A stretch of DNA of 64,000 bases from contig JAFSEX010000005.1 of NCBI GenBank assembly GCA_017435465.1, positions 134,793 to 198,792 of the forward strand, in the 5' to 3' direction. The DNA is from Bacilli bacterium. GTDB lineage: Bacteria > Bacillota_I > Bacilli_A > RF39 > UBA660. The notes under the pieces are model-generated. The model ran no database searches and was not told the origin of the DNA. It was given only the letters and a program-made list of their open reading frames with translations. Positions 8,917 to 25,344 of the stretch are shown one piece after another. The position numbers were made by a program, and so were the translations under genes. Within the stretch, counting starts at the first letter, position 1. Each line of letters begins with the position of its first letter.

Positions 8917-10215
8917 TTATTTATTTTTTAAACTTTTATTAACTAATTTATAATGATGTAGAGTAACATATAAAACATTCACTATAGTAGCAATTATTAA
9001 TGGATACATTCCAATTCTAAGTAAAGATAATCCAAATAATAATATACATTTAATTATAATTCCTATTAGGGTTGCACTAAAGGCATCACGAGCTTTATTC
9101 ATTGCTTGCAAAGCACTTGTTAAAGGACCTTGAATATAGAATATTAAAAAGAATGGAGCTAAAACTCTTAAATAATTTACACCTTCAGTAGTGTTATAAA
9201 ATAATTTTAAGAAAAATTTAGGGAAAATAATTAAAGCACTTGTAACAATTAATCCTATACTAAATGAAATTACGCACGCTTGTTTAATTTTTTCTTTAGC
9301 ATGTTTTATGTGTCCATTAGAATAACTTTTACTTATTACAGGAATTAACGCTTGAGAAATTGCCATCGCGAAAAATGAAGGCATTAATAATGTTTGAATA
9401 ACATATCCAGAAATTATTCCATATTCATAGGTTATAAATTTAGTAGAGTAGCCTACTAAAAGCATAGTTTGTGTAATGATTATTGGTTCTAAAAAATAAC
9501 CAAGTGATCCAACTAACCTAGAAGAAGTTGTTGGAATAGATATTTGCATTACATCTTTAATTATTGATTTATCAGGTTTTAATTCTTCTTTTGTAACTCT
9601 AAATTTTTTTGGTAAATAAAAATATAAAATTAAAATAGATAATAATTCACTAACAACATTATAAATAACTAATCCTGCTACTGCAAAATTTATACCTCGT
9701 TTTAAAAGAATAGGAGTAATAAAAATTATTATTATTAGTCTTATAATTTGTTCAAAAACATTTGATACAACGTGTGGAATCATTTTTTGTTTTCCAAAAA
9801 AATATCCACGAGCAATACTTGAAATACCAATAAAGGGTAGGGTAAATCCAATGCAGACAATTGGTAAATATGTATTACTATTTTTTAATAAAATATTTGA
9901 CATAAAAGGAGCAATTAAAAATATTAATAATATTAATAATGTATTAAATATTATTGATACGAAGATTGTAGAAAATATAATTTTTTTATTATTTGTTTTA
10001 TCCTCACTTACTAACTTTGAAATCGCAATTGGAAAACCCAGTTGTGATAGTGTAATAAATAAATTAAAAGTAGGAGTAATTAACATGTAAAGTCCAATAC
10101 CTTCGGTTCCAACAATTCTTGTGGTAAAAACTTTAATAATCATTCCTAAAATTTTAGTAAGAAACCCTCCTAATACTAAAATAAGTGTAGATTTTATAAA
10201 AATATTCTTATTCAT
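8917..10215 (-). CDS. MOP-superfamily flippase (MurJ/SpoVB-like)
   Basis: 432-aa polytopic membrane protein. The N-terminus ..LILVLGGFLTKILGMIIKVFTTRIVGTEGIGLYML is typical of SpoVB/MurJ-type polysaccharide/lipid II flippases. Confidence 0.7.
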   Translation of the reverse strand: MNKNIFIKSTLILVLGGFLTKILGMIIKVFTTRIVGTEGIGLYMLITPTFNLFITLSQLGFPIAISKLVSEDKTNNKKIIFSTIFVSIIFNTLLILLIFLIAPFMSNILLKNSNTYLPIVCIGFTLPFIGISSIARGYFFGKQKMIPHVVSNVFEQIIRLIIIIFITPILLKRGINFAVAGLVIYNVVSELLSILILYFYLPKKFRVTKEELKPDKSIIKDVMQISIPTTSSRLVGSLGYFLEPIIITQTMLLVGYSTKFITYEYGIISGYVIQTLLMPSFFAMAISQALIPVISKSYSNGHIKHAKEKIKQACVISFSIGLIVTSALIIFPKFFLKLFYNTTEGVNYLRVLAPFFLIFYIQGPLTSALQAMNKARDAFSATLIGIIIKCILLFGLSLLRIGMYPLIIATIVNVLYVTLHHYKLVNKSLKNK

Positions 10216-10319
10216 AGTTCACCTTCATATCTATAATAAATATATGAATGAATACTTGTGAAAATGTATATTCTATGTTATTATGTATATAGGTGAGTGA
10301 AAACTCATAAAATAAAAAA

Positions 10320-10356
10320 GGATACATTTGACTCTCGTGAATCAAATGCTTTCCCT
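10320..10356 (+). repeat. Left copy of an inverted repeat with a hairpin
   Basis: ggatacatttga-ctctcgtgaa-tcaaatgctttccct. Its reverse-complement partner is at 21007-21037. Internal 7-bp stem catttga/tcaaatg. Confidence 0.5.
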
Positions 10357-10364
10357 ATTCGGGT

Positions 10365-10404
10365 GCATCTGAAATCAACTATTGTTGAAATCAGATGCTT
10401 TTAT
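10365..10404 (+). terminator. Rho-independent terminator after the left repeat
   Basis: gcatctgaaatcaac/gttgaaatcagatgc hairpin (13 of 15 paired) followed by ttttatt. Confidence 0.55.
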
Positions 10405-10886
10405 TATTTAAATAGTAAGACTATTACTATAAAGATGTTTCATACTATAAGTAATACAAAATTGAAAAACTTATTTTAAATGAATTGTTAATAAATGAAA
10501 ATTAATTTTAATTTTTTCATATAAATAAAATCTTATTATCATTATAAATAAGAGAATATCATTTTCTCATTAATTTTATAATTATAAAATAATATTTTAT
10601 GCTTTAAATTTGTGTAAATAGTATATCTTGTTTATATTAAATGTTTGCAAAAACTATGACATTCCAAGATTTGCTACATATAAAATTTTATGATATTATA
10701 GACACACTAAAGGGATATTAGTTTTCTAAAATTTTAAAAAGAAAAATAAAGTGTTTATTTAATATATAATATAATTGTAAGTTATATTATGGTGATAATT
10801 TAATTATATAATTACTCGTATACTCGTACAAAACTAAAAATTTATATAAATACTAATTGTAACATAATAAGGAGTTCGATTTTACT

Positions 10887-12479
10887 ATGGATTTAATAAA
10901 ATATGACTTTGAAAGAAAAGTGATTAATGATCTTAAAAAATATGATATGAAATATAATTTAAAAGAATTAAAAAAAATATATTGTGAATTTATTAAAATA
11001 ATAAACAATTCAAAAAACCATAGTAATATTGTTCGGTTCCATAAAAGAATTACTTACACTTATAGCAATATGAAATATGATAATTTTTACAATTTTTATT
11101 CCAAAAAAATTAATCGACTACAATTTGAAAAAAACAATAAAACAATACAAAAATTCAAAAATAAATATATTAAAACTTGTGATTTGTTATTTGATTATTT
11201 TCAAAAATTTTCTAGAAACAATAGTGATAATAAGTATTTATTGTATTTAAAACAAAATTATAAAATAAGTAAAGATGAATATTATATTAAATTTTATAAT
11301 AACTTTAAAGTAGATGTATTTGTTGAGAATAAAAAAATAATGGTCTCTTTTTCTAATATTTATGATTTAATGGATTTAATAAATTCCCATAGTAATAAAG
11401 AATATATATATCATAAATTTACAAAAAAAATAAATGAATATGAAAAAAGATTTAAAAAACACATTGTTTCCATTATTAATAACAATTTGTGTATTGAAAA
11501 TTATTTTTCAAATATTTTGACTGAAAACAATATAAATTATAACTGTTTATGTAATATAAAGACAATTATAAAAAGAAGTGAAATATTAAATATGTATGTT
11601 TCATATAAGAAAAAAATATTGAAAAATGATAATTTATTTCAAATTGAGCTATTCTCATATAATTATTATTATAATATTAATTTTAAATTAGAAAATATTC
11701 TAGAAGTATTTTCATTGTTTGGAGAAAATTACATAAGCAATATTAAAAATAAATTACAGAATAGTATTATTATTGATAATACATTGAATAATAAAGGATT
11801 AACCATTAGTAATTTATCTGGTAATGGATTTATATTAATCAAAAACCTTAATACTATTGAGAATATTTTTGTTACGGTACATGAATTGGGTCATTTAATG
11901 TATAATTATTATATTGATAACAAATTTATGACTTCTAAAGAAATTTTAATTTCAGAAATATCTGCCATTTTAAATGAAATTCTATTAAATGATTATTTGG
12001 TTAAAAACAATTTATCGAATAATATTTACTTTTTAGATAGTGTAATGAAAATATTAGTTAATGGTATAATAGAATTTGAATTTTTAGAGGACATTTATTT
12101 ATACCACAACAATGATTATTCTTATATTAAAGAAAAATATTATGAAATAACAAAAAATCTTTATAATGAAGAAGTTCATATAAATAAAGATAATATTGAT
12201 TTTATTATTGACAATAATATATATAATGACATATATCCATTACGTTATATTGTCGCGTTAATAATTTCAATAAATATATTTAAAAATATACAAGAAGATT
12301 CAAATTATATAAATAAGTATTTTAAATTTATAAAACAATCTTCTTCTGTTAACAGTATTGATGAAGCATTAAAAATTTTAAATATTAATTTAAAACAAAA
12401 AAAAGTTTATGAAAATATGATTAGTTATCTATATAATATTATTAATCATTGTATTATTTCTGAAAAAAACACTATGTAA
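10887..12479 (+). CDS. M3B-family oligoendopeptidase F-like metallopeptidase
   Basis: VHELGHLMY zinc motif with downstream EISAILNE (HExxH...E), 530 aa. Extremely Asn/Lys/Ile/Tyr-rich. Confidence 0.7.
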   Translation: MDLIKYDFERKVINDLKKYDMKYNLKELKKIYCEFIKIINNSKNHSNIVRFHKRITYTYSNMKYDNFYNFYSKKINRLQFEKNNKTIQKFKNKYIKTCDLLFDYFQKFSRNNSDNKYLLYLKQNYKISKDEYYIKFYNNFKVDVFVENKKIMVSFSNIYDLMDLINSHSNKEYIYHKFTKKINEYEKRFKKHIVSIINNNLCIENYFSNILTENNINYNCLCNIKTIIKRSEILNMYVSYKKKILKNDNLFQIELFSYNYYYNINFKLENILEVFSLFGENYISNIKNKLQNSIIIDNTLNNKGLTISNLSGNGFILIKNLNTIENIFVTVHELGHLMYNYYIDNKFMTSKEILISEISAILNEILLNDYLVKNNLSNNIYFLDSVMKILVNGIIEFEFLEDIYLYHNNDYSYIKEKYYEITKNLYNEEVHINKDNIDFIIDNNIYNDIYPLRYIVALIISINIFKNIQEDSNYINKYFKFIKQSSSVNSIDEALKILNINLKQKKVYENMISYLYNIINHCIISEKNTM

Positions 12480-12502
12480 ATTATTAAATATAATAAAATC
12501 TA

Positions 12503-12531
12503 TTGACAAAGCTTTAATTTATCATTATAAT
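12503..12531 (+). promoter_or_regulatory. Consensus sigmaA promoter for the sORF
   Basis: TTGACA (12503-12508), exactly 17 nt, TATAAT (12526-12531). Confidence 0.7.
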
Positions 12532-12554
12532 CCAATGATAAGGAGGGCTAATAT

Positions 12555-12644
12555 ATGATAAAATTTATCAAATCTTTATTTTTTAAGAAATTAGATAAAA
12601 ATGATTTAGAATTATTGGCTATTTGTGAGACACATAGATCATAA
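12555..12644 (+). CDS. 29-aa small peptide, candidate precursor/scaffold peptide (not in the ORF track)
   Basis: ATG at 12555, 7 nt after aggaggg. Translation is MIKFIKSLFFKKLDKNDLELLAICETHRS*. It has its own consensus promoter and a downstream hairpin, and lies immediately upstream of the enzyme operon. Confidence 0.55.
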   Translation: MIKFIKSLFFKKLDKNDLELLAICETHRS

Positions 12645-12660
12645 TCTAAATTGTGATTTG

Positions 12661-12690
12661 GACTGTATCAAATAGCGATACAGTCTTTTT
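12661..12690 (+). terminator. Hairpin/partial terminator after the sORF
   Basis: gactgtatc-aaatagc-gatacagtc followed by ttttt. It lies 36 nt before the next gene's start. Confidence 0.65.
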
Positions 12691-12725
12691 GGATTATTAG
12701 ATTTATGTAATGGAGGTAATAAAAA

Positions 12726-14675
12726 ATGAAAATTATGGATTTAAAAGATGCTACTTCAATTTCTGGAGGAAAAGCATCTGGATTAGCACTGTTGAATAAG
12801 ATGATGGTTCCAGTTCCTTCTGGATTTGTAATTAATGACACATTGAGTTTAAATTATGATAACAATGATATATATTTAATTCAACAATATTTAAAAAAAC
12901 TTGATTCATCAAAGAAATTAGCAGTAAGATCATCAGCATGTGCTGAAGATGGTATTAATAAATCGTTTGCTGGTATATTTGAAACTGAATTAAATGTAAA
13001 TAATGACATTGAAAGTGTTTTGAGAGCTATCCAAAAAGTTAATGCAAGTGCTACAACTGATGTTGTAAAAGCATATTCAAATAATGAAAGACAAATAATG
13101 AATATTGTAATACAGGAAATGGTTGAACCAAAAATTGCAGGTGTATTATTTTCTGACGCAATGGATATTAATGGCGATAATGTTATACTATTTGAATGTG
13201 TTGAGGGACTTGCTGATAAATTGGTAAGTGGGGCAGCAGAACCAGCACAAATAATAATTAAAGTTAAAAACAATGAGATAGATGAAACAAGTATAAGAGT
13301 AGAAGGAAATCTTTTAGATTTGAGCACATTAAAAAATATATTCCCTTTTGTTAATAAAATTAAAAAAATAAGTGATAGACCACTTGATATTGAATGGTGT
13401 ATTGATAAAAACGGGAATCCATATTTTGTACAAGCACGGCCTATTACTTCAACAGTATTTATTAATAAAACAACTGAAAATTCTGGAATAGTTGCTTCAA
13501 GAGGCTATGCGGAAGGTGAAACTTATGTAATTGATGAAAATCAATCGGATGAAGAAATAAAAAAAGAAATTGATAATTTTCCAGAAGGAGCAATTCTTGT
13601 TGCAGGAGTAACAGAAACATTATATATGCCAGCAATAAAAAAAGCAAAAGGAATTATTACAGAAGAAGGTTCAGCATTATCACATGCTGCTATTGTTTCA
13701 AGAGAGTTAGGAATACCATGTATCGCTGGGTACAAAAATGCTATTAATTTATTTCCTACTGGTACTAAAATAGTTCTAGATGCTTCAAATGGTAAAGTTA
13801 TATCAAATGGTATTGAAAATACATTAAATACCGAAAAAGGTTTTGAATTTGGAGAATTATATTGTTTTGATAATGCACATAGGGTTGATTTTGATAATTT
13901 TAATGTATTTTTTGAATCAACTTATGGCGGATTAATGTTACATATGAATAGTGAAAATGCTACTCCTAAAAATATGGAAAAAGTAGAAAAATATGCTAGA
14001 ACAATGTTTAATAGTTCACCAGAACAACATTTTGATGATAAATATTTATGGTATTTAGAAATAGAACGATTTAAAAAATTACCTTTTTATAATGAAATGA
14101 ATCAAAAAATGATGGAAATTGTAGAAAATAAAGACTCTATTATGCTTGAAACATTTTATAATGAGTCATTAAATATGTTAAGTGATTTAGTAAATTACAA
14201 ACAAAATGGCGCAAATGAAAAAGAAAAGTTAATCATTGATGAAATTGGTGCGGCTACTAATTTAATTTTAGATGCAATGTTGCCATTAGGTTACGCTTTA
14301 AGACAATGCTATTTTGATTCAATTAGCTTATTAAAAAAGTATAATTTAAATTTTAATGATTTATTTACTAATAGAAATTTAAACTTATCAGATGAAGAAT
14401 TAATCAAAATAAGAGATTTCTTATTTAGCGTATCTACAAATAGAAATGAAGTTTATGAAAAAATATGCAATATTGGTGCAACATCCCCAGAATATTTTGA
14501 ACTTAGAGATGGAGAAATAAGAAAAGCAAGTAATTATGATAATGATGCTAATATTGATACATTTTATAATTCTTTAACATATACTGATTTTGAAAATATT
14601 AGGTTAATAATGCAACGATATTTTTCTAAAAAAAAAAGTAACAATTCTTTAGTTTATGCTAGACATTCTAGGTAA
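12726..14675 (+). CDS. PEP-utilising enzyme family protein (ATP-grasp PPDK_N domain plus swivel phospho-His domain plus unassigned C-terminal domain)
   Basis: SGGKASGLALLNK..VPVPSGFVI, LAVRSSACAEDG..SFAGIFET (PPDK_N/ATP-grasp) and EEGSALSHAAIVSRELGIPCIAG (mobile His domain). About 290 C-terminal aa carry no motif I recognise. Confidence 0.8.
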   Translation: MKIMDLKDATSISGGKASGLALLNKMMVPVPSGFVINDTLSLNYDNNDIYLIQQYLKKLDSSKKLAVRSSACAEDGINKSFAGIFETELNVNNDIESVLRAIQKVNASATTDVVKAYSNNERQIMNIVIQEMVEPKIAGVLFSDAMDINGDNVILFECVEGLADKLVSGAAEPAQIIIKVKNNEIDETSIRVEGNLLDLSTLKNIFPFVNKIKKISDRPLDIEWCIDKNGNPYFVQARPITSTVFINKTTENSGIVASRGYAEGETYVIDENQSDEEIKKEIDNFPEGAILVAGVTETLYMPAIKKAKGIITEEGSALSHAAIVSRELGIPCIAGYKNAINLFPTGTKIVLDASNGKVISNGIENTLNTEKGFEFGELYCFDNAHRVDFDNFNVFFESTYGGLMLHMNSENATPKNMEKVEKYARTMFNSSPEQHFDDKYLWYLEIERFKKLPFYNEMNQKMMEIVENKDSIMLETFYNESLNMLSDLVNYKQNGANEKEKLIIDEIGAATNLILDAMLPLGYALRQCYFDSISLLKKYNLNFNDLFTNRNLNLSDEELIKIRDFLFSVSTNRNEVYEKICNIGATSPEYFELRDGEIRKASNYDNDANIDTFYNSLTYTDFENIRLIMQRYFSKKKSNNSLVYARHSR

Positions 14676-14688
14676 TAGGATAATTATT

Positions 14689-15678
14689 ATGACAAAATAT
14701 ATATTTAATGATAACACTAAACTTATTTTTATAAAGAACAATTATATTTTAATTCAAAATAATAATAAAAAGATAAAAGAAAAACTTGATGAGAATTTTT
14801 ATAATATGTTGTTTAAAGTTCAAAAAAACAATTATATTTTTTCTACTGATTTAAAATTTTTCACAGAAGAACAATTAAAGTTTTTATATGACAAATCGGT
14901 AATAAAAAAATTGAGTCCAATATCCGAAAAATATATCAACACTAGATATGAAAAATATCAAATATATTTGGAAAATATATTTTCGGATGCAAAAAAAATT
15001 GATTATATAAAAAATAATAACCAAAAAAAAATTTTATTTGTTGGCGCAGGTGGAGTTTGTACAGCAATAATCGACTATCTCATTTCTGTCGGATTTAATA
15101 GTTATGGAATTATTGATTTTGATATTGTAGAAACAACAAATTTTAATAGACAATTTAAATATAAGGAAACTGATGTTGGGAGTTTAAAAGTAAGTAAAAT
15201 AAAATCAAATCTAAATGAACAATATTCTGGATTAACAATTTCAACATATAATAAAAAAATCTGTTCTTCAAATGACCTTGATTATATTGTCGGTGATTAT
15301 AATCCTGACTTCATTGTCTGTGCAGCCGACACACCTATATTTTTGATTCAAAAATATATTGCTGAAGTATGTTTAAAAAGAAATATTGCTTGTATTTTCG
15401 GAGGAGTAGGTCAAACTAAGGGTGTGTTTGGACCACTATTATACAACAAAAAAGGGTTTAATAAATATTTAAAAAAAATTAATAATGTTTTATGTTCTTT
15501 AGAAGGTGTTTTTCCGTGTAAAGGATCATTTGGAATAACAAATTCTTTGATATCAAATTATATGGCAAAAGATATTATATTTTATATGATGAATAAAAAG
15601 AAAAAAGTAACCTCATTAAATAAAGAATGTGAAATTGATTTTGATAGGAATGTAATTTATGAAAAAGAAAGATATTAA
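14689..15678 (+). CDS. ThiF/E1-like adenylyltransferase (MccB/PaaA-like) with an N-terminal extension
   Basis: ILFVGAGGVCTAIIDYLISVGF..GIIDFDIVETTNFNRQ is a Rossmann/E1 signature starting near aa 115. The preceding ~110 aa are an extra domain. The start is uncertain (ATG 14689 or 14656). Confidence 0.75.
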   Translation: MTKYIFNDNTKLIFIKNNYILIQNNNKKIKEKLDENFYNMLFKVQKNNYIFSTDLKFFTEEQLKFLYDKSVIKKLSPISEKYINTRYEKYQIYLENIFSDAKKIDYIKNNNQKKILFVGAGGVCTAIIDYLISVGFNSYGIIDFDIVETTNFNRQFKYKETDVGSLKVSKIKSNLNEQYSGLTISTYNKKICSSNDLDYIVGDYNPDFIVCAADTPIFLIQKYIAEVCLKRNIACIFGGVGQTKGVFGPLLYNKKGFNKYLKKINNVLCSLEGVFPCKGSFGITNSLISNYMAKDIIFYMMNKKKKVTSLNKECEIDFDRNVIYEKERY

Positions 15679-16681
15679 TGATTTAATTAAAAATTATCAA
15701 GTAAACGAATCACCATTAATGTTATATGATTTATCACAATTAAAACTAAACATTCAAAAATTATTATTCTTAAAAACTAAATATAATGTTGAGTTTCTTT
15801 TTCCAGTTAAAGCATTTCCTGAATATAAAGTTTTAAAATTGTTTTTCGACTTTGGGTTTGGTTATGATATAGCTAATGAAAATGAATTTAACACAATTGA
15901 TAAAATCATAAACAAAGATACATTAATTTCTTTTAATGGTACTCCAACTATATCTAACAAAAAAGAATATAATAATATTATATATAATTTAAATAGTTTA
16001 AATGAATTAACTAACAAAACATTTTATAATGGAATAAGAATAAATACTTATATAAAAAACAAAACTGAATTTAGTAAATTTGGGATACCTATTGAAAAAA
16101 TAAAATCTATTAATAATAAAAAAATAAAATCTATTAGTTTTCATTTTTATGAGGAAAATAAAAAAAAGAAACTTAAGCATATTTTAAATTTTGCAAGAAA
16201 ATGTATAACTATATTTAAAAATCTAGATTATATTAATTTTGGTGGTAATTGGGATGTCATAGATGTTAGCAACTTCGAGAGAAACATAATTGAAATCAGA
16301 AAATATATAGATAATAAAATAAAAATTATATTTGAAGTTGGTGAAAATTGGTTTGAAAATTGTGGATATTTAGTTACCAAAGTTATAAGTACAAATGAGA
16401 TATCTAACAAAAAAATATTTTATATAAATGCTGGAAAAGATAGTGTTGCAAAATGGTCAGTTTTGAAACCTGTTAATTTGGAATATGAAAAAGAAGATAA
16501 GTTTACTTATATCATTTCTGGCAATAGTTGTTATGAGAAAGACATTTTTACTGTAACAAATAAAAAAGTTAATATATCAATTAATGATAAGATAGTTTTT
16601 GTTGGATTAAATGGATATTCTTATGCTTGGTGTAAAGAATTTAACGGTTCAAATTCTCCAGAGGTGATATTTTATGAATAG
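15659..16681 (+). CDS. Fold-type-III PLP-dependent decarboxylase (Orn/DAP/Arg decarboxylase family)
   Basis: FPVKAFP (PLP-Lys), GFGYDIANENEF and GNSCYEKDIF motifs. Its start overlaps the upstream stop by 20 nt. Confidence 0.75.
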   Translation: MKKKDINDLIKNYQVNESPLMLYDLSQLKLNIQKLLFLKTKYNVEFLFPVKAFPEYKVLKLFFDFGFGYDIANENEFNTIDKIINKDTLISFNGTPTISNKKEYNNIIYNLNSLNELTNKTFYNGIRINTYIKNKTEFSKFGIPIEKIKSINNKKIKSISFHFYEENKKKKLKHILNFARKCITIFKNLDYINFGGNWDVIDVSNFERNIIEIRKYIDNKIKIIFEVGENWFENCGYLVTKVISTNEISNKKIFYINAGKDSVAKWSVLKPVNLEYEKEDKFTYIISGNSCYEKDIFTVTNKKVNISINDKIVFVGLNGYSYAWCKEFNGSNSPEVIFYE

Positions 16682-17888
16682 TTATTATATTTATAAAAAA
16701 GATGAAATAAAGTATTTAGAAAATGAATATAAAGTTTCTTTACCACATAAATTATCTCTTAATGATTATATTGATTTTAAAAGAAATATATTTATTAATA
16801 TTCAAGGAAAATATAATATAACTGTAACAAATAAGAATTCAGTAGAATATGAAAATATCTTTACGAATAATCATATTTCATATAAATATTCTTATACAAG
16901 GTATGATAGCTATATTAATTATTCAAATTTTTGTAATGACTTTTATAAATTAGAAAAAAATAACCATTATAAGTCAAAGGTTTTTTTTACTAATAGTGGC
17001 ATGAGCGCAATAACATCTTTATTGTTAGCAATAAATACAGTTTTAGATGATTTTTCATTTTTATTACCAGATGAAGATATTTATTTTGAAACTTATGATT
17101 TTTATAATAAATATATAAAAGATAAAAATAATATTAATAAAAACATATTGTATATTGATACAATTGCGAAAAAATTCGATATTAAAAGATATATAAATCT
17201 TATAAATAATAATGATAATATTTTTGCTGTAGTAATTGATACTACTTGTTTTTTACCAAATGAGTTGAATAAACTGATTTCGAGCGTTATTAACAAAAAT
17301 TTATTGTGTGTTTTAGTTAGAAGTCATACTAAGTTAGATATGATGGGTTCTGAAATATCTAGTTTGGGTTCACTAGTATATTTAATACCACGCAAAACAG
17401 ATAATGAAAAATTTCAAATAATAAAAAGAATTATTTCAGAAAGTTATTATCTATTAGGTAAATTTGGAGCATTGTGTCTCCCTGATAAATTTCCAGAATT
17501 TATTTTTGATAAGAAATTTAAGAAAATAAATAATCAAAGAATAAAGCAAATAGAGAATAATAATTATAAATTATATACTTTTTTAAAAGATAATATTAAA
17601 AAAGGAAAAATAATATTACCAAAACATCAAAAATTTATCTTGTATGTTTTGAATGAAAAATTAGATAATGAATGTCAAAGTAATATTATAGAAAATAGTA
17701 TAAAATTATTTGTGAACAAAAATGAAAAACTATTTTATGCTTGTAGTTTTGGTTTTGATTATATAGCTCTTGATTCTTACTATGATATAAACGAAAAAAA
17801 TTATGTTATGAGAATATCCATGAATGATGATGAAAATAATGTTGATATTTTTAATGAAATTAAGGAGTTTATTAATGATAACTTTTAG
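16674..17888 (+). CDS. Fold-type-I PLP enzyme, Cys/Met-metabolism (CGS/CBL)-like
   Basis: FFTNSGMSAITS and VRSHTKLDMMGSE (the S-x-T-K PLP-lysine context). ATGAATAG start/stop overlap with the upstream gene. Confidence 0.5.
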   Translation: MNSYYIYKKDEIKYLENEYKVSLPHKLSLNDYIDFKRNIFINIQGKYNITVTNKNSVEYENIFTNNHISYKYSYTRYDSYINYSNFCNDFYKLEKNNHYKSKVFFTNSGMSAITSLLLAINTVLDDFSFLLPDEDIYFETYDFYNKYIKDKNNINKNILYIDTIAKKFDIKRYINLINNNDNIFAVVIDTTCFLPNELNKLISSVINKNLLCVLVRSHTKLDMMGSEISSLGSLVYLIPRKTDNEKFQIIKRIISESYYLLGKFGALCLPDKFPEFIFDKKFKKINNQRIKQIENNNYKLYTFLKDNIKKGKIILPKHQKFILYVLNEKLDNECQSNIIENSIKLFVNKNEKLFYACSFGFDYIALDSYYDINEKNYVMRISMNDDENNVDIFNEIKEFINDNF

Positions 17889-19152
17889 TATAGATACATT
17901 ACCTTTATCAAAAAATATTATTGATTCTAATGATTATTCTAGTAAAATAATATATTCTGCTACAAGCGATACTTTGTTTAAATATAGTTTAAAGAAAAAC
18001 AAAATAATTAAAAATTCTTGCAGTTACTATAAATATAGTAATAATAATAAAATTTTAACCATTAAAATTAGAGATGATTTATATTTTTATAACGGAGATA
18101 AAGTTACAGCAAACGATTATTATCATACTTTTAGACATATATTAAATTCAAAAACGCACATAGGGATAATATTTAGACATTTCTTTACTGATATAAAAAT
18201 ATTAGATGATTGTACATTTCAATTAGTAAATAAAACGAAAAATGATAAATCTTATGAAATATTATCAATTTATAGTGCTTGCTGTTTAAAAAACAATTAT
18301 ACTAGCGGTGCTTATTATATAGAAAAAACGGGGAAAAATTTTATTATATTAAAACGTAATGAATTTTATAGAGAAAAAATTCATAATAAAGATGCAGAAG
18401 TAATTAAGTTTATTTTAACTGATGGTCTAAATGATTATAAATTATTTAATAACAAGATAATTCAAATTACCAATAATACTATGTGTGATATCAATAATAT
18501 AGATAAATATAATTATATAAGAGAGAATAACTACATTTATTTAAATATCATTTTTTCTAATGAAATGATGAGAAATAGATATAAAAAAATCAGAAAAATC
18601 ATATCTGATATAATAGATAAAGATAAAATTGCTAATATGTTAGATAATAAGTATGATATTAATGAGTCTTTTATTGTAAATAATAGTATAACTAATATTA
18701 AGCGAAAAAAAATCAATATAAATATTGATACAACAAAGTCCATTAAACCCTTAACTTTGGGGTATAACAATTTTTATCCAAATAAAATAATTGCTGAAGA
18801 AATAAAAAAACAGTTAGAAGCAGTTGGATTTAAAATAGATTTAGTTGAAAATAAATTTAATATTAAAAATACATGTGATTTAAATATTACTCTTAACCAC
18901 TTAGAATACATTACAGAATCATCTATAATAAATGGTTCTTACTTTTTCGTGATTTTAGAAAAAAATTCAATTTATAAAACTATTCTTAAAATGTATAATG
19001 TAACACATAAAAAATATTTGTTGGATTTAATTAATAAAAAATTATTAAAATTAAAATATAAAATTCCGTTATTAAAAATGAATGGATACTATTTAAAATC
19101 AGATAAATATAATAAATTTAATTATATTGAACTTAATTTTAATGAAATGTAG
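17875..19152 (+). CDS. Family-5 solute-binding-protein-like protein without signal peptide or lipobox
   Basis: ATG 17875 lies 7 nt after AAGGAG. ..ATSDTLFKYS..LTIKIRDDLYFYNGDKVTANDYYHTF resembles the SBP_bac_5 (OppA/DppA/NikA) N-lobe. The N-terminus MITFSIDTLPLSK has no hydrophobic leader. Confidence 0.6.
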   Translation: MITFSIDTLPLSKNIIDSNDYSSKIIYSATSDTLFKYSLKKNKIIKNSCSYYKYSNNNKILTIKIRDDLYFYNGDKVTANDYYHTFRHILNSKTHIGIIFRHFFTDIKILDDCTFQLVNKTKNDKSYEILSIYSACCLKNNYTSGAYYIEKTGKNFIILKRNEFYREKIHNKDAEVIKFILTDGLNDYKLFNNKIIQITNNTMCDINNIDKYNYIRENNYIYLNIIFSNEMMRNRYKKIRKIISDIIDKDKIANMLDNKYDINESFIVNNSITNIKRKKININIDTTKSIKPLTLGYNNFYPNKIIAEEIKKQLEAVGFKIDLVENKFNIKNTCDLNITLNHLEYITESSIINGSYFFVILEKNSIYKTILKMYNVTHKKYLLDLINKKLLKLKYKIPLLKMNGYYLKSDKYNKFNYIELNFNEM

Positions 19153-19163
19153 GTGATTTATAT

Positions 19164-20831
19164 ATGATTGAAATAGCAGCATCACGTGTTAAAAAAAATT
19201 TTGGTTTCAAAAATGTTTTTGACTCTTTTGATTTAGAGGTTTCTACTGGTGAAAGAGTTGGTTTAATTGGCCCAAACGGATGTGGTAAATCTACTTTATT
19301 TAAACTAATAACGAAAGAAGAAACACCTGACTCTGGAATAATTACAATTAGAAAAGGTGCTAAAATAGGCTTTCTTTCACAAATGCCTTTTATTGATAAT
19401 AATGAAACGACAGTAAGGGAACTATTAAATTCAACTTTTAAAGATACTTATGATATTGCGACAGAAATGAAACGATTAGAAGAAAAAATGGGAATTGCTG
19501 ATAGTAAAGAATTAGAAAAGATATTAGACAGGTATGGTGTTTTACAACAAAGATTTGTTGATTTGGATGGTTATTCTATTGATTCAAAAATAAATGAAAT
19601 ATGTAATAAATTTAAAATTAATCATAATTTATTAGATAGACCATTTTTAAGTTTATCTGGTGGTGAAAAAACAATAGTCGGTTTTGCAACAATTATGCTC
19701 TCAAATCCAGATATTTTGCTTCTTGATGAACCAACCAATAATTTAGATATTGATACTTTAGAGTGGTTAGAAAAATATTTAAAAAATTATAGTGGAACAA
19801 TTATTATGAGCTCACATGATAGATATTTCTTAGATAAAGTAGCAAATAAAATAGTTTTAATCGAAAGGGGAAAATCAGAAATATTTTATGGGAATTATTC
19901 CTATTATCTAGAAGAAAACGAAAGAAGAACTTTATCTGAGTTTGAACAATATAAAGATCAACAAAAGATGATTGAGGCAATGAAAAAGAAAATAAAGCAA
20001 TTACAAGAATTCGGACGACTTGCTGCACCAAGCGGAGAATCATTTTTTAAAAGAGCAGCAAGTATACAAAAAAGGTTAGATAAAATAGAACTGTTAAATA
20101 AACCAGAAGAACAAAAAGAAATACCGTTAAATTTCCAAATGAATAACAGATCAGGGAAACAAGTGTTATTAATAAATAATCTTGATTTGAATATTGGTGA
20201 TAAAAATTTACTTAAAGATACTGAATTTAGTATTTATTTTAAAGATAAAATATGTTTGATGGGTAAAAATGGTTGTGGAAAATCAACATTAATAAAACAT
20301 ATAATTAATTTATATAATAATTCTGATAAAAGTGATGATGCAAATGTTAAAATAGGTAGCAATGTTTTAATAGGATATATCCCACAAATTATTGATTTTA
20401 AAAATAATAATGCAACTGTATTAGATGTTGCTAGAAAATATTTTAATGGAACTGAAACATATTTGAGAGCATCATTAGCAAAATTTATGTTTAATGGTGA
20501 TAATGTATTTAAAAAAGTAGGAAATCTTTCCGGTGGTGAAAAAATTCGATTAAAATTATTTGAACTTATGCAACAAAATATTAATTTTTTAATAATGGAT
20601 GAGCCAACTAATCATATTGATATAACAACCAAGGAAGTGTTGGAAAATTCCTTAAATGAATTTCAAGGAACAATTTTATTTATATCACATGATAGATATT
20701 TTATTAATGAACTGGCAAAAAAGATATTGTGCATTGATAATCAAACAATTACTGAATATTTAGGTAATTATGATGATTATAAAATAATAAAAGAAAAACA
20801 ATTAATTAGAGAAAAGAAATCTAGTAAATAA
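19164..20831 (+). CDS. ABC-F family ATPase (two ABC domains, no TMD)
   Basis: Two Walker A motifs (GPNGCGKST; GKNGCGKST), two LSGGE signatures, a charged inter-domain linker and SHDRYF motifs. Confidence 0.85.
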   Translation: MIEIAASRVKKNFGFKNVFDSFDLEVSTGERVGLIGPNGCGKSTLFKLITKEETPDSGIITIRKGAKIGFLSQMPFIDNNETTVRELLNSTFKDTYDIATEMKRLEEKMGIADSKELEKILDRYGVLQQRFVDLDGYSIDSKINEICNKFKINHNLLDRPFLSLSGGEKTIVGFATIMLSNPDILLLDEPTNNLDIDTLEWLEKYLKNYSGTIIMSSHDRYFLDKVANKIVLIERGKSEIFYGNYSYYLEENERRTLSEFEQYKDQQKMIEAMKKKIKQLQEFGRLAAPSGESFFKRAASIQKRLDKIELLNKPEEQKEIPLNFQMNNRSGKQVLLINNLDLNIGDKNLLKDTEFSIYFKDKICLMGKNGCGKSTLIKHIINLYNNSDKSDDANVKIGSNVLIGYIPQIIDFKNNNATVLDVARKYFNGTETYLRASLAKFMFNGDNVFKKVGNLSGGEKIRLKLFELMQQNINFLIMDEPTNHIDITTKEVLENSLNEFQGTILFISHDRYFINELAKKILCIDNQTITEYLGNYDDYKIIKEKQLIREKKSSK

Positions 20832-24135: not shown

Positions 24136-25344
24136 ATGGAAAAGAAAAAAAGGGTTTTAATGGGTATACTAATAATAATTATTATACTAATATTAGGAAC
24201 TATTTTATATTTAATGTTTAATAAAACTAAATATAATTATGAAGATTATATTTATAAAATACATTATTTTGAAGACTATGTACCTGGATATAATCATGAT
24301 ATTTATTTTCTTAAAGATAAAAAAATTAAAGTTATTTCTAATCCTGGATGTAGTATTCCAAATTGCAAAGTTGAATCTAAAACAACATATGTAAATTTTT
24401 CTAACAAAAATATTGAAATAATTTGGAATTGGGCTAAAAATATAATGAATAATACAAATTATATGGAAATATTATCATCAAATATAGATAATGATACTAA
24501 AAACATAATTGATAGTATTATATATAATAATGAAAAATATTTAGATAAATCAAATACTACTAAATATAAAGAGATTCATTTTAAAGATTATAAAATTATT
24601 AATAATGATTTAGAAATTATAAAAGAACAAAGTTTTAAGTTAAAAATAAAAGATCATATTATTTATATTAATAATGTTAAAACTAATATTCAAAATGATT
24701 ATGATGAATTTTATGTGGTTGATATTGATAATGATAATATAAAAGAAATAATTACAAGAACAACAACAAAGGATGTTTCACCATTTACTAATAATTATCA
24801 TATATATAAATATTTTACTGATAATAATTATTTTGAAGAGATTGTTACAATTTCAATTATGGGAAGTATAAATTCTTTTTATGTAAATGGTCCAGATATA
24901 AAAGTAGTATATAATCCTTTTGAGCCAAAAGAAGATTATATTGAGGAAAAGCATTATCAATTTATATCTGAAGATTACGAAATTAGTATTAAACCAATAT
25001 ATTTATATCAAACACCAAATAGTTTAATTTTATATAAAAATAATTATTTGATAACTAAATCATTTGATACTTCAAATTATAAAAATATGATTCATCATTT
25101 TAATAATTATTACATTGATATTAATGCTATTAAAAATAATATAATAAAACAAGATTTAAAAGAAGAATATTTAAAATGTGATGTTACTGAAATTGATGGG
25201 AAATTAGAAGAAGCATGTTACGTTTTTTATGCTGTTAAATTTAAAAATGATGATAAAGAATATTATTTGAATAAAGATAGTTCTGTACTTAATGATATTA
25301 TAAATAAATTAAATTATACTGATCAAATTTGGTATGTAAACTAG
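24136..25344 (+). CDS. membrane-anchored hypothetical protein
   Basis: N-terminal TM anchor (VLMGILIIIIILILGTILYLMF) followed by a 370-aa extracytoplasmic part. No known motif. Confidence 0.5.
   Translation: MEKKKRVLMGILIIIIILILGTILYLMFNKTKYNYEDYIYKIHYFEDYVPGYNHDIYFLKDKKIKVISNPGCSIPNCKVESKTTYVNFSNKNIEIIWNWAKNIMNNTNYMEILSSNIDNDTKNIIDSIIYNNEKYLDKSNTTKYKEIHFKDYKIINNDLEIIKEQSFKLKIKDHIIYINNVKTNIQNDYDEFYVVDIDNDNIKEIITRTTTKDVSPFTNNYHIYKYFTDNNYFEEIVTISIMGSINSFYVNGPDIKVVYNPFEPKEDYIEEKHYQFISEDYEISIKPIYLYQTPNSLILYKNNYLITKSFDTSNYKNMIHHFNNYYIDINAIKNNIIKQDLKEEYLKCDVTEIDGKLEEACYVFYAVKFKNDDKEYYLNKDSSVLNDIINKLNYTDQIWYVN

Follow-up and report, generated by a model that had tools for sequence, protein, structure and literature searches.

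A predicted subfamily of MccB-type RiPP gene clusters with a PEP-synthase-like phosphotransferase in Bacilli

In the analysed window (the whole 64 000-nt stretch of contig JAFSEX010000005.1) we found an operon that we assign, with reasonable though far from complete confidence, to a subfamily of ThiF-like (MccB-type) RiPP gene clusters that has not been described before and for which a mechanism can be proposed. The product of the subfamily is probably translation-targeting; all chemical steps are inferred, chemistry at the C-terminal Ser is unproven and no product is known. The operon itself is confirmed as real; the arrangement is far beyond chance since the same small ORF (sORF) and gene set recur in unrelated genomic contexts. 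An earlier note on this DNA had read the genes as a RiPP or scaffold-peptide pathway with an MccB/PaaA-like E1 enzyme at its centre, and every available computational test agrees with that proposal. A matching family is absent from two 2025 reviews and the 2024 survey of ThiF-RiPP types; the operon is apparently undescribed so far.

Operon organization and expression signals

A check of ORFs in the window placed the precursor-peptide gene at 12555..12644 (+ strand), followed by six tightly coupled plus-strand genes. When all ORFs and junctions were re-checked, the stop/start pairs were 14675/14689, 15678/15659, 16681/16674, 17888/17875 and 19152/19164. These coordinates are as previously noted; the accompanying statement that gaps do not exceed 12 nt does not hold for 14675/14689 (13 nt). 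The internal starts of the ThiF-like protein (14689) and the SBP5-like protein (17875) are both backed by homologues. An enrichment in Asn, Lys, Ile and Tyr, noted earlier for the genes at large, is present in five proteins only: the M3B, ThiF-like, decarboxylase, CGS-like and SBP5-like products contain 43–52% N+K+I+Y versus 28–35% in sampled housekeeping genes, while the PEP-utilising protein and the ABC-F, at 31% and 33%, show no such enrichment.

As had been claimed, the sORF has a consensus promoter directly before it; its ribosome-binding site is strong, and a terminator hairpin follows. The sigma-70-type promoter of the precursor and operon (12503..12531, +) is the sole 12/12 match to TTGACA-17-TATAAT within 10.2–21.3 kb; its hexamers are kept in L085, L005 and L006, with a different spacer. 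Directly 3′ of the precursor stop codon is a hairpin that outranks all other terminator-like ones in the region, an intrinsic terminator or attenuator (12660..12686, +) with a 10-bp stem and a T-run (fold z-score −3.9; none of 200 shuffles was equally good). In L005 and L006 the hairpin carries one compensatory G-C to A-T change, and a hairpin follows the sORF in ∼12 of 14 loci, with sequences differing and position kept. Promoter and hairpin are observed, as is their conservation; how they act in expression is inferred. Given a terminator-like hairpin after the precursor stop, expression of the enzymes should need read-through. The strong promoter would thus drive synthesis of the 29-aa precursor, the terminator would give surplus precursor mRNA and read-through would supply the enzymes.

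The precursor peptide family

The 29-residue product of the sORF, MIKFIKSLFFKKLDKNDLELLAICETHRS, combines a leader motif and a D-x-E-L-L box with the conserved C-terminal Arg-Ser; an AAGGAGG ribosome-binding site lies 5′ of the gene. The family was defined from 14 sORFs in related loci (13 distinct peptides, at least three architectural variants) and 24 further database variants. Common features are the N-terminal M-x-K-F-x-K-x-L-F leader, the D-x-E-L-L box and the terminal Arg-Ser, with K3, R28 and S29 invariant among the 13 distinct peptides. Exceptions to the Arg-Ser end, all from the protein collection, are two rare Arg-Thr variants (known from two single-contig records; no residue other than Thr was seen in place of the terminal Ser), a 33-aa variant running on beyond Ser and one L170-type variant with an aberrant tail.

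The protein collection holds 19 near-identical precursor variants on ∼480 contig records, none of which carries a name. Variation is located mainly in the N-terminal half, and the sequence DLELLAICETH before Arg-Ser is almost invariant inside a group. Changes at variable precursor codons in four loci were synonymous in seven cases and non-synonymous in three. In all full-length related clusters a homologous sORF with a GGAGG ribosome-binding site adjoins the PEP-utilising gene; homologous operons lacking any sORF, part of what the earlier note would have counted against a peptide-derived pathway, did not appear among them. Judged by sequence, the sORF homologues are a precursor family conserved as peptide in all full-length related clusters. 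NCBIfam contains no model for it.

Cluster family and core enzymes

The conserved core consists of the sORF, the PEP-synthase-like phosphotransferase, the MccB-like ThiF enzyme and a short cytosolic SBP5-like protein. Variable tailoring genes encode a norspermidine-type PLP decarboxylase, a Cys/Met-family PLP enzyme, radical SAM enzymes, a methyltransferase and an M3B peptidase; the minimal clusters L166 and L168 have neither PLP enzyme nor peptidase. PEP-utilising and ThiF-like genes do co-occur with an sORF elsewhere, and the decarboxylase, about which the earlier note had also asked, is a variable tailoring gene. Related clusters were seen at a prophage edge, in a conjugative element and as an insertion beside a recombinase; none of the related loci examined lay inside a recognised primary-metabolic pathway, and no conserved exporter was found across the clusters. 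The subfamily is horizontally mobile, and most of its hosts are uncultured low-GC Bacilli from the guts of animals and humans. Profile searches of the window proteins were clear for PPDK_N, PEP-utilizers, ThiF and SBP_bac_5, weak for Orn_DAP_Arg_deC and Orn_Arg_deC_N and very weak for Cys_Met_Meta_PP.

The MccB-type ThiF-like adenylyltransferase (14689..15678, +, 329 aa; ThiF 4e-31, in line with the earlier E1-like call) has an N-terminal peptide-clamp/RRE-like domain (residues ∼1–95). The family profile matches MccB at 6e-30 (residues 58–316) and PaaA at 5e-17, and the motifs GxGGxG, NxNRQ and (A/S)AD are invariant. The AF2 model (pLDDT 89.5) can be aligned from end to end with MccB and, next, with PaaA: the top 24 Foldseek matches are all MccB (∼345 aligned columns), whereas MoeB and ThiF align with the adenylation domain only. 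Absence of a clamp fold, which would have spoken against a peptide-derived pathway, is not what the model predicts, as the superposition on MccB includes the N-domain.

The PEP-synthase/rifampin-phosphotransferase-like enzyme (12726..14675, +, 649 aa) had been read as an ATP-grasp/swivel-His protein, and matches to PPDK_N (4e-35) and PEP-utilizers (3e-22) bear this out. It comprises an ATP-grasp domain (∼1–250), a phospho-His swivel domain (∼285–356, with His320) and a family-specific C-terminal domain (∼364–635); His320 and the ATP-grasp motifs are invariant across 55 homologues. The C-domain has no match in Pfam or PDB, and Foldseek matches of the AF2 model (pLDDT 87.9) to PPDK, RPH and PEPS run through the N-terminal domains only. 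Just 45 clusters among 1.84 billion representatives contain this domain, full-length matches all being at the same position in proteins of ∼600–680 aa; as far as such comparisons can tell, the domain is novel.

The short SBP_bac_5-like protein (17875..19152, +, 425 aa; 2e-18) lacks an export signal, as had been observed: no hydrophobic signal peptide was seen at the N-termini of the family (e.g. MITFSIDT). Its 33 clusters, all of 400–426 aa, are unnamed, and weak PDB matches are to peptide- and nickel-binding proteins. The gene is present wherever a cluster has a ThiF-like gene; we presume that this core component is a peptide-binding partner.

The ABC-F ATPase and variable genes

The ABC-F ATPase (19164..20831, +, 555 aa), already recognised as such, is of ribosomal-protection type, passing NCBIfam NF000355 ‘ribosomal protection-like ABC-F’ with 443 bits against a cut-off of 380. 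It has two ABC_tran domains and an ABC_tran_Xtn linker; the Pfam/NCBIfam domain search found no membrane domain. Cluster-linked ABC-Fs share 39–76% identity with each other versus ∼30% with a housekeeping paralogue. Groups A, B and C all carry the gene, as do L169 and L170, though neither its position nor its strand is constant. By these comparisons it is a conserved, orthologous cluster member that occurs in every variant class; its role is presumed to be self-protection. In L165 it is gone along with the cluster, which supports the linkage. Remnants remain in L004 and L087; that L005/L006, L087, L089 and L090 have no ABC-F gene or only a degraded one counts against the explanation that we prefer, as does the lack of a conserved exporter.

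The fold-type III PLP decarboxylase (15659..16681, +, 340 aa) gave weak domain matches (Orn_DAP_Arg_deC 7e-7, Orn_Arg_deC_N 4e-4). The family profile supports the earlier assignment, pointing to the carboxynorspermidine/DAP-decarboxylase type (carboxynorspermidine decarboxylase 5e-21; DAP and ornithine decarboxylases full-length); nspC is the best NCBIfam match. Residues K51, H162, G195-G196, E226 and C291/E293/D295 are invariant. The closest relatives convert amino-carboxypropyl to aminopropyl groups. In group C the decarboxylase is fused with a methyltransferase-fold domain, and in L090 these are two separate genes.

The next gene (16674..17888, +) encodes a highly divergent 404-aa Cys/Met-metabolism-type (fold-type I) PLP enzyme. 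Its proposed CGS/CBL-like identity stands at the family level, 7 of 10 members matching Cys_Met_Meta_PP (best 3.7e-7), but remains weak for the window protein itself (0.005); a PDB sequence search with the protein gave no match. Residues G109-M110-S111, D189, S217, K220 and R380 are invariant in the family. The gene adjoins the decarboxylase gene in the window, L004, L005, L006, L085, L089, L090, L169–L172 and L175, and the pair is also adjacent in a Sphingomonas ThiF cluster, alongside a ThiF-like gene.

Upstream of the promoter, a divergent M3B (PepF-like) zinc peptidase gene (10887..12479, +, 530 aa) retains the HELGH motif noted earlier and matches TIGR00181 pepF at 7e-20, under the cut-off; Pfam gave nothing at E ≤ 0.01. 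Homologues lie directly 5′ of the sORF in L085, L171/L172 and L005 and are absent there in other groups. The peptidase, confined to the window's own subgroup, is an accessory gene and a candidate leader/processing peptidase.

Proposed mechanism and alternative explanations

The ThiF-like enzyme resembles MccB of microcin C over its full length, and the methyltransferase–decarboxylase fusion of relatives is an arrangement similar to MccD/MccE. A microcin C copy is ruled out, as the earlier note had concluded: the peptide has no C-terminal Asn, and MccC, MccD and MccF are absent, no MFS, methyltransferase or S66 peptidase being found among the window genes. Nor had the earlier note seen a membrane exporter encoded.

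We propose that the RRE-like clamp of the MccB-like enzyme grips the N-terminal leader and that the Ser29 carboxylate is adenylated; this is inferred from homology, intact ATP motifs and the conserved C-terminal Arg-Ser, and for E1-type chemistry at a C-terminal Ser we know of no characterised precedent, which weighs against the proposal. The SBP5-like protein would grip the peptide tail. A phosphoryl group would pass from ATP via His320 of the PEP-synthase-like enzyme to the peptide, most likely to the terminal Ser hydroxyl, where Thr is the only natural replacement seen. Either the warhead itself, perhaps a phospho- or nucleotidyl-serine derivative at the C-terminus, or an inactive phospho-prodrug that protects the producer might arise in this step. 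In the window subgroup, the CGS-like enzyme and decarboxylase may, as a pair, install an amino-carboxypropyl group that is then decarboxylated to aminopropyl, with an outcome as for MccD/MccE. PLP enzymes require a free alpha-amine and cannot use an internal residue, so this idea rests on analogy only. The M3B peptidase would trim or free the product, and the cluster-specific ABC-F would shield the producer ribosome; from such protection a translation-targeting product is inferred.

It is possible, though unlikely, that in the same RiPP cluster the PEP-utilising protein serves immunity in the manner of rifampin phosphotransferase, inactivating the mature product or holding it back as a phospho-prodrug, while the ThiF-like, SBP5-like and tailoring enzymes make the active compound, for example with a C-terminal lactone or cyclised Arg-Ser warhead. 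Rifampin phosphotransferase is among the closest characterised architectures, and when the window is compared with L085 no other operon protein is as well conserved (78% identity; ABC-F 76%; ThiF-like, decarboxylase, CGS-like and SBP5-like proteins 58–64%). Intact orphan copies without ThiF or SBP5 partners exist in L165, L167, L174 and L173 (the last with a radical SAM gene), and further lone copies in unrelated genomes. An orphan in a strain of the L001 species lacks the sORF and the radical SAM, ThiF, SBP5, aminotransferase and ABC-F genes; its flanks are 99% identical, the gene itself only 94%, and 127 sequences belong to its 90%-identity cluster. Since an intact orphan exists, the protein may serve immunity instead of, or besides, biosynthesis; a resistance role accounts for the orphan copies no less well than a biosynthetic role does, which counts against our best explanation. 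However, no cluster lacks the gene, and in nearly all of them it follows the precursor immediately, ahead of the other enzyme genes; two immunity genes (PEP-utilising and ABC-F) beside one clear core enzyme would be unusual, and the orphans may have other substrates. We regard as improbable a scaffold or carrier role for the 29-mer, in which E1-activated C-terminal residues would become a small amino-acid-derived metabolite or cofactor, released by the peptidase and finished by PLP enzymes, a logic known from mycofactocin, PQQ, pearlins and the CysO/HcyS thiocarboxylate carriers. Such a role is compatible with invariance across all groups being limited, besides Lys3, to the last two residues, with the lack of a conserved exporter and with the M3B peptidase of group A; the free amine needed by PLP enzymes suits a released small molecule, and ThiF-like and Cys/Met-family PLP enzymes act together in protein-thiocarboxylate-dependent homocysteine/cysteine synthesis. 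Yet the minimal clusters L166 and L168 dispense with PLP enzyme and peptidase, there is no Gly-Gly-ended beta-grasp carrier, rhodanese/sulfurtransferase or LanB-like PEARL enzyme, the near-invariance of DLELLAICETH within a group exceeds what a scaffold needs, ABC-F linkage suggests a toxic product directed at translation, and mobile, patchy clusters are not typical of cofactor pathways.

Very little speaks for the sORF being merely a regulatory leader peptide for ribosome-mediated attenuation, as before many ABC-F resistance genes, with a metabolite unrelated to it. The terminator immediately 3′ of the sORF and the ABC-F gene in the operon would suit this role, but the sORF is kept in the ABC-F-less clusters L005, L006, L089, L090, L166 and L168; in L170 it heads the PEP-utilising gene only, with the ABC-F on the other strand, and in L169 it lies between two enzyme genes on the opposite strand. 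Moreover, the N-terminal motif, 20–30 residues before the stop, is conserved though cluster enzymes are only 33–45% identical, and the adjacent E1-like enzyme has an MccB-type peptide clamp. Under the preferred reading as an MccB-type RiPP cluster, the MccB-like enzyme, the phosphotransferase and the ribosome-protection protein together point to a new translation-targeting peptide antibiotic.

RESULTS

Gene content and surroundings of the operon

The ORFs found in the 10.9–20.8 kb interval were exactly those listed in the earlier note. They are plus-strand genes for an M3B peptidase, a 29-aa peptide (a short ORF, sORF), a PEP-utilising-like protein, a ThiF-like enzyme, a PLP-dependent decarboxylase, a divergent PLP enzyme of Cys/Met-metabolism type (CGS-like), a short SBP_bac_5-type protein (SBP5-like) and an ABC-F ATPase. 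The gene junctions agreed with the description given there, apart from the 14675/14689 gap, which measures 13 nt and not 12 nt or less. Homologues fixed the true starts of the ThiF-like gene (14689; 329 aa) and of the SBP5-like gene (17875). Pfam and NCBIfam scans confirmed the proposed domains PPDK_N plus PEP-utilizers, ThiF, SBP_bac_5 and ABC-F; the domains expected for the two PLP enzymes were also found, but the match was weak for the fold-type III decarboxylase and very weak for Cys_Met_Meta_PP. The M3B peptidase is divergent and PepF-like, with the HELGH motif present. The remark that these proteins are richer in Asn, Lys, Ile and Tyr than those of the flanking housekeeping genes was true for five of the seven and not for the other two. 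GC content is ∼23–25% throughout the window, which reads cleanly with genetic code 11. An Rfam scan of the whole window returned no RNA family, thus no riboswitch or T-box was identified upstream of the operon. A protein of the window is 100% identical to its counterpart in an uncultured ‘Bacilli bacterium’ MAG.

The block is flanked by a MurJ/SpoVB-like gene on one side and by a ComN-like gene, then SecDF, on the other. A 670-bp, very AT-rich non-coding stretch (10216–10886) separates the MurJ/SpoVB-like gene from the M3B gene; the GC content of 10001–12000 is 18.6%, the minimum of the window. Relatives have a radical SAM gene upstream of the M3B peptidase gene; a remnant of such a gene was looked for upstream of the M3B gene of the window and none was detectable. 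A 402-aa ORF located between SecDF and an ABC exporter (24136–25344) had no Pfam match at E ≤ 1e-5. The sole stretch with negative GC skew (57900–60250; −0.25 in 58001–60000) coincides with minus-strand ORFs at 57934–58995 and 59104–60243 in a window otherwise almost entirely plus-strand. A gene for a Fic/DOC-domain protein is present within a few kb of the cluster in the window (5817–6683) and again in the unrelated relative L004 (14096–14707), which may be a coincidence.

Related loci and mobility

About 20 related loci were gathered from gut and other metagenomes and MAGs, with the ThiF-like and PEP-utilising proteins as queries, and were annotated by BLAST against the window proteins. The hosts are uncultured gut Bacilli with 22–36% GC. 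The core of the cluster has four parts, the sORF and the genes of the PEP-utilising-like, ThiF-like and SBP5-like proteins; the minimal clusters (L166 and L168) consist of this core and a radical SAM enzyme only. Among the three main groups, the M3B peptidase is present only in the group of the window itself (window, L085, L171/L172 and L005). The accessories of the second group are radical SAM enzymes and an aminotransferase. In the third, the decarboxylase is fused to a methyltransferase-fold domain; it makes the C-terminal half of such a fusion in L004, L089 and L175, and in L090 the two are separate genes. The decarboxylase and CGS-like genes were found as a pair in the window and in L004, L005, L006, L085, L089, L090, L169–L172 and L175.

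The cluster adjoins a phage holin and lysin in L171, conjugation genes in L168 and an apparent large serine recombinase interrupting a cell-wall gene cluster in L005/L006. Since genomic contexts differ among the loci, we conclude that the cluster is mobile.

In L171/L172 (972–2478 and 18427–20819) the cluster directly follows the phage holin and GH25 lysin pair, while an Xre-type regulator and several small ORFs are situated 3′ of it. This version is the most abundant in the human gut (its PEP-utilising protein, database entry P0035, occurs in 239 blocks of the contig collection) and is possibly a prophage-borne moron. In L005 (7786–9447) and L006 (7026–8687), both from rabbit gut, no ABC-F gene comes after the SBP5-like gene; its place is taken by a 553-aa ORF that resembles a large serine recombinase, as judged from the N-terminal motif alone. 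This ORF precedes a truncated gene for a penicillin-binding protein, as well as MraY and a Mur ligase. The cluster seems to be carried by an element that has inserted into a cell-wall gene cluster.

The precursor peptide and its expression signals

The sORF (12555–12644; 29 codons) encodes MIKFIKSLFFKKLDKNDLELLAICETHRS and has an AAGGAGG ribosome-binding site. A TTGACA-17-TATAAT promoter at 12503–12531, 5′ of the sORF, is the sole perfect match in 11 kb. The best terminator-like hairpin of the region is located directly 3′ of the sORF, at 12660–12686 (fold z-score −3.9; no shuffled sequence folds equally well). The operon has a conserved gene for a small peptide, read as strongly expressed and followed by a terminator.

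In every full-length cluster an sORF with a GGAGG ribosome-binding site adjoins the PEP-utilising gene. The 14 sORFs read from the loci gave 13 distinct peptides, which were aligned; one more sORF was read in L175. The peptides, 23–35 aa in length, carry a leader-like N-terminal motif, M-x-K-(F/L)-x-K-x-(L/I)-F, and an acidic box, D/E-x-(E/K)-L-(L/A); residues K3, R28 and S29 are invariant in the 13 aligned peptides. All 14 sORFs end in Arg-Ser and none in Asn. Tails that were read include ...AICETHRS in the group of the window, ...NCCIHRS and ...KCCVHRS in the group with a radical SAM/SPASM enzyme and a class I/II aminotransferase, and ...KMSMSQRS in the group with the methyltransferase-decarboxylase fusion; further variants end in ...LVNTHRS, ...MCATHRS, ...VCMSARS and ...YFSKRS. 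Placement varies as well. The sORF of L169, placed between the PEP-utilising and ThiF-like genes, is read from the opposite strand, while that of L170 heads the PEP-utilising gene only, the remaining genes being divergent.

Nucleotide alignment of the window's group showed 7 synonymous versus 3 non-synonymous variable codons, and one compensatory change in the hairpin. A hairpin is present 3′ of the sORF in ∼12 of the 14 loci, with a sequence that varies from group to group. The excess of synonymous changes, the compensatory change and the positional conservation of the hairpins support a coding, selected peptide. In a collection of 15 billion proteins, the window-type peptide was found as 19 variants on ∼480 contigs, none of them named, and NCBIfam has no model for the precursors. 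Variation in the collection falls mostly in the N-terminal half; the terminal Ser is replaced by Thr only (two single-contig records ending in Arg-Thr). There are two outliers, one variant that runs four residues beyond Ser and one L170-type variant with an aberrant end, LGSSG. Taken together, these observations are the mark of a translated, selected peptide with a C-terminus that matters, and not of a chance ORF.

The ThiF-like enzyme is of the MccB type

A search of PDB with the ThiF-like family profile matched MccB (6e-30, residues 58–316) and PaaA (5e-17). The ATP-binding and catalytic motifs GxGGxG, NxNRQ and (A/S)AD are invariant. In a Foldseek search with the AlphaFold (AF2) model (pLDDT 89.5) the best 24 matches were all MccB, aligned over ∼345 columns, i.e. 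the whole protein including the N-terminal domain; PaaA came next, and MoeB and ThiF matched over ∼245 columns only. Absence of a peptide-clamp or RRE-like fold from the N-terminal domain had been named as an outcome that would refute a peptide pathway; this outcome was not met, as the alignment to MccB spans that domain. The operon encodes an MccB-type enzyme with a peptide clamp and an intact adenylation site. Two definitions are satisfied: the one of a microcin C-type enzyme (MccB-type ThiF-like protein with N-terminal peptide clamp and intact ATP motifs) and the broad one of a RiPP pathway with a ThiF-like adenylyltransferase, TLAT (short precursor gene adjacent to a TLAT with RRE, conserved C-terminal motif). 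Matches of the ThiF-like protein in plasmids (tblastn) were unrelated ThiF genes.

The PEP-utilising-like protein and its orphan copies

The PEP-utilising-like protein matched PPDK_N (4e-35) and PEP-utilizers (3e-22), which meets the requirement of an ATP-grasp plus a swivel domain; both domains, with His320, are invariant in 55 homologues. The same pair of domains with the catalytic His is characteristic of rifampin phosphotransferase (RPH), PEP synthase and PigC/RedH, and the chemistry expected by comparison with these enzymes is transfer from ATP to His~P and further to a substrate oxygen. Unlike all these proteins, the present one is embedded in a peptide-modifying operon. Its domain order is that of PEP synthase and not of RPH. 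Identity with PEP synthase was rejected since all NCBIfam PEP synthase models scored far below cut-off and a TIM barrel is missing: no match to PEP-utilizers_C was found, and the requirement of a C-terminal PEP/pyruvate TIM barrel, as in PEP synthase and PPDK, was not met. Identity with rifampin phosphotransferase was rejected as well (NF041857, 114 bits against a cut-off of 999; His domain central, not C-terminal as in RPH, where it comes after the ATP-grasp and drug-binding domains).

The C-terminal domain (residues ∼364–635) was modelled with confidence (pLDDT 87.9) as a small β-sheet and a long helical bundle. It had no Pfam match, and a PDB profile search gave chance-level matches only; Foldseek matches of the full-length model run through the ATP-grasp and swivel domains only. 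Among 1.84 billion representative proteins the domain occurs in only 45 clusters; full-length matches have it at the same position in proteins of ∼600–680 aa, the others being fragments.

Several copies of this gene stand without the cluster. L165 comes from a strain of the species of L001, with flanks 99% identical and the PEP-utilising gene only 94%. It keeps an intact gene for a 634-aa protein (9001–10911; compare 6858–8744 in L001) and lacks the sORF and the genes for radical SAM, ThiF-like, SBP5-like, aminotransferase and ABC-F proteins. The orphan represents a protein cluster of 127 member sequences and looks like a resistance or immunity gene. An internal stop was considered and rejected: the TGA in question (10903–10905) is two codons from the end and is read as Trp in database protein P0081, which implies that one metagenome pipeline used genetic code 4 on this low-GC contig. 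Lone copies are also present in the unrelated genomes of L167 and L174, and in L173 the partners of the gene are a radical SAM enzyme and a small, unrelated ORF.

The lone copy in L167 (3928–10818; 37% identical) is adjoined by three genes resembling class I aminoacyl-tRNA synthetases, by an ORF of 41 codons and by two S51 peptidases, in an archaeal-type context (archaeal-type AdoMet synthase, thermosome). Additional copies of aaRS genes are a classic mark of self-resistance.

The PLP enzymes and the SBP5-like protein

The decarboxylase keeps the full catalytic set and qualifies as fold-type III by its PLP lysine, Gly-rich loop, E-x-G and C-x-E-x-D. Its nearest relatives are carboxynorspermidine decarboxylase (5e-21, over the full length) and the diaminopimelate (DAP) and ornithine decarboxylases. 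Enzymes of these kinds act on a terminal α-amino-acid moiety, and carboxynorspermidine decarboxylase converts an amino-carboxypropyl group to an aminopropyl group. The CGS-like protein of the window matched PF01053 (Cys_Met_Meta_PP) weakly, below cut-off (E = 0.005); seven of 10 relatives match this family (best 3.7e-7). Invariant residues include a G-M-S loop, Asp189, Ser217, Lys220 and Arg380, and the family profile gave chance-level matches only in PDB. Cys(−6) of the precursor was rejected as the general nucleophile for the CGS-like enzyme, as L004, L089, L090 and L170 have the enzyme and Cys-less precursors.

A ThiF-like gene and homologues of the decarboxylase and CGS-like genes are located together in Sphingomonas pituitosa NBRC 102491 (68% GC; L017, 9635–17061), along with a probable B12-binding radical SAM gene and without a PEP-utilising or SBP5-like gene. 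Presence of the pair in a ThiF-like cluster without a PEP-utilising gene suggests that the decarboxylase and the CGS-like enzyme are a portable tailoring pair shared by distant ThiF-type clusters.

The SBP5-like family (400–426 aa) has no signal peptide. NCBIfam has no model for the CGS-like or SBP5-like protein.

A co-inherited ABC-F protein

The ABC-F protein has two ABC_tran domains, an ABC_tran_Xtn linker and no membrane domain, similarly to the ARE ABC-Fs of antibiotic producers and of pathogens (Vga, Lsa, Msr, OptrA). Its score of 443 bits against NF000355 (‘ribosomal protection-like ABC-F’; cut-off 380) meets the family criterion, while it does not reach the cut-off of any named ARE subfamily (Vga, Lsa, Msr, OptrA, producer type). 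The gene is represented in each of the three main groups, as well as in L169 and L170, with position and orientation that vary; degraded remnants are present in L004 and L087. The cluster-linked ABC-Fs are 39–76% identical to each other and only ∼30% to a neighbouring housekeeping ABC-F, and in L165 the ABC-F is missing together with other cluster genes. On the strength of this mutual identity and joint absence, we take the ABC-F to be an ancestral, co-inherited member of the cluster. Linkage to a biosynthetic cluster is known for the ARE ABC-Fs of producers (TlrC/CarA/OleB/SrmB, LmrC); linkage to a ribosomal-peptide cluster sets the present one apart, and we found no literature report of a RiPP gene cluster that includes an ABC-F. 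Along with the precursor and the MccB-type enzyme, the operon thus encodes a His-swivel phosphotransferase, a cytosolic homologue of peptide-binding proteins and a co-inherited ABC-F.

Comparison with microcin C and other ThiF-dependent pathways

The layout of the operon parallels that of microcin C (mccABCDEF): an intrinsic terminator stands between a short precursor gene and the genes of the modifying enzymes, as in mccA-mccB. Further parallels are the MccB-clade enzyme with an N-terminal peptide clamp (the best match in both sequence and structure), strict conservation of the C-terminal residue of the precursor and a fold-type III PLP decarboxylase of the amino-carboxypropyl to aminopropyl kind, as in the MccE N-domain. 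Fusion of the decarboxylase to a methyltransferase-fold domain in relatives resembles MccD plus MccE; this likeness does not come from a sequence match, as tblastn searches against plasmids with the decarboxylase and the group-C methyltransferase (that of the fusion) did not hit E. coli MccE or MccD.

The differences are substantial. The precursor (23–35 aa, including a leader-like motif) ends in Arg-Ser and not in Asn, which rules out the succinimide/phosphoramidate route of MccB. The absence of MccD, MccC and MccF from the window was borne out by Pfam and NCBIfam scans of the seven window proteins, which detected no MFS (the MccC exporter), S66 peptidase (MccF), GNAT (the MccE acetyltransferase domain) or HIT domain. 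Unlike mcc clusters, the core has in addition the His-swivel phosphotransferase and the cytosolic SBP5-like protein, and an ABC-F is present in place of the immunity genes for an aaRS-directed compound. The cluster is thus of microcin C type in layout and key enzyme, yet it fails the defining tests of the microcin C family, having no C-terminal Asn and no MccC, MccF or MccE-CTD.

In L170 only, a RimL-type GNAT (11531–12073; Acetyltransf_3, 8.5e-29) is located just downstream of the PEP-utilising gene; it belongs to the family of the MccE C-terminal immunity domain.

Known ThiF-like RiPPs include, along with microcin C, pantocin A (PaaA), enterofaecin (WWIII) and the IndF indolylamide (NWYFI), as well as the VEGR, NICxxxK, CxxxC and GxxQY types (PMC11256085, PMC12250964, PMC12596934); we took the list of types from a 2024 survey of ThiF-RiPPs and consulted two 2025 reviews of the field. 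With other TLAT RiPPs the present family shares a ThiF-like enzyme with RRE, short precursors with a subfamily-specific C-terminal motif, variable decarboxylases, PLP enzymes, radical SAM enzymes and methyltransferases, and signs of horizontal transfer. PaaA acts on an internal Glu-Glu-Asn, unlike what is expected for a family with C-terminal Arg-Ser. No type described in the 2024 survey ends in [H/Q/K/A]-R-S, and neither the survey nor the two reviews report an ...HRS type, or a PEP-utilising, SBP5-like or ABC-F partner for the described types. Literature searches combining ThiF/MccB with PEP-utilising, PPDK, rifampin phosphotransferase or ABC-F returned nothing relevant. Within the literature searched the family is undescribed; we place it outside the microcin C family, as a new subfamily among the ThiF-like-dependent RiPP pathways.

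Known anti-phage defence was rejected: PADLOC gave no specific model, only generic E1 and ABC/AAA similarities.

DISCUSSION

The operon is real, and the earlier interpretation as a peptide pathway stands: the locus is very probably a peptide-modifying, RiPP-type system. We propose that the MccB-like enzyme would bind the leader and adenylate the carboxylate of the C-terminal Ser, that the phosphotransferase would phosphorylate the peptide, for which the hydroxyl of the terminal Ser/Thr is the simplest acceptor, and that the SBP5-like protein would present the peptide tail. The PLP pair may add a decoration of aminopropyl type, the counterpart of what MccD/MccE add in microcin C; a pair of PLP alkyl-transferase and decarboxylase does likewise in muraymycin-type nucleoside antibiotics. 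The M3B peptidase would process the peptide and the ABC-F would protect the ribosome of the producer. That the product targets translation is, in our estimate, an even bet. Any specific chemistry is doubtful, and sequence cannot tell what structure the C-terminal modification has. The complete scheme (a translation-targeting RiPP made by a swivel-His phosphotransferase acting on a ribosomal peptide, E1-like activation of C-terminal Ser, a phospho-/nucleotidyl-seryl or lactone warhead, aminopropylation by the PLP pair, and ABC-F immunity) is offered as a tentative one that may well prove wrong.

For the PEP-utilising-like protein, a role in self-protection or in prodrug handling is a serious rival to a role in peptide phosphorylation, given that the pattern of orphan copies resembles that of immunity and resistance genes and given the analogy to rifampin phosphotransferase. 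The system as a whole could instead be a scaffold- or carrier-peptide pathway similar to mycofactocin, pearlin or CysO, which would fit the PLP enzymes and the missing exporter, as well as the fact that little past the last two residues of the precursor is invariant across groups. Still, the minimal clusters have neither PLP enzymes nor peptidases, the stretch before Arg-Ser is nearly invariant within groups, and no Gly-Gly β-grasp carrier, rhodanese or PEARL enzyme is present. Two particular versions were rejected directly. Sulfur-carrier systems (ThiS/MoaD/CysO/HcyS) use a β-grasp carrier of ∼65–100 aa ending in Gly-Gly, a clamp-less E1 and often a rhodanese domain, while here the peptide has 23–35 aa and an Arg-Ser end, the enzyme has an MccB-type clamp and rhodanese is absent. 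A PEARL/pearlin pathway would need a LanB-like peptide aminoacyl-tRNA ligase, and no such domain was found in the window proteins or in the called genes of the related loci. The notion that the sORF is purely a regulatory leader is contradicted by its persistence without the ABC-F, its varied placement, its conserved N-terminus and the adjacent peptide-clamp enzyme.

Pathways of ThiF-like RiPPs make a small, fast-growing field where, to our knowledge, each new subfamily so far has brought new chemistry (phosphoramidate, indolizidone, cyclic imide, indolylamide). The RiPP-type subfamily proposed here adds two partners without RiPP precedent, a swivel-His phosphotransferase with an orphan domain and a cytosolic solute-binding-protein homologue, as well as a conserved C-terminal Arg-Ser, an end beyond the reach of known MccB chemistry. 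There is no precedent for this combination of enzymes. The conserved ABC-F leads to a testable prediction of the target, translation. The cluster is widespread in gut metagenomes and, being compact (seven genes and a 29-mer), is well suited to refactoring. If the complete scheme were true, there would be three firsts: a PEP-synthase-type enzyme acting on a ribosomal peptide, an E1-activated C-terminal serine and dedicated ABC-F immunity; the product would then represent an antibiotic class of the gut microbiome with a new ribosome- or aaRS-directed pharmacophore. With ∼480 contigs from human and animal gut metagenomes, all of uncultured organisms, the system may be an ecologically relevant factor of antagonism.
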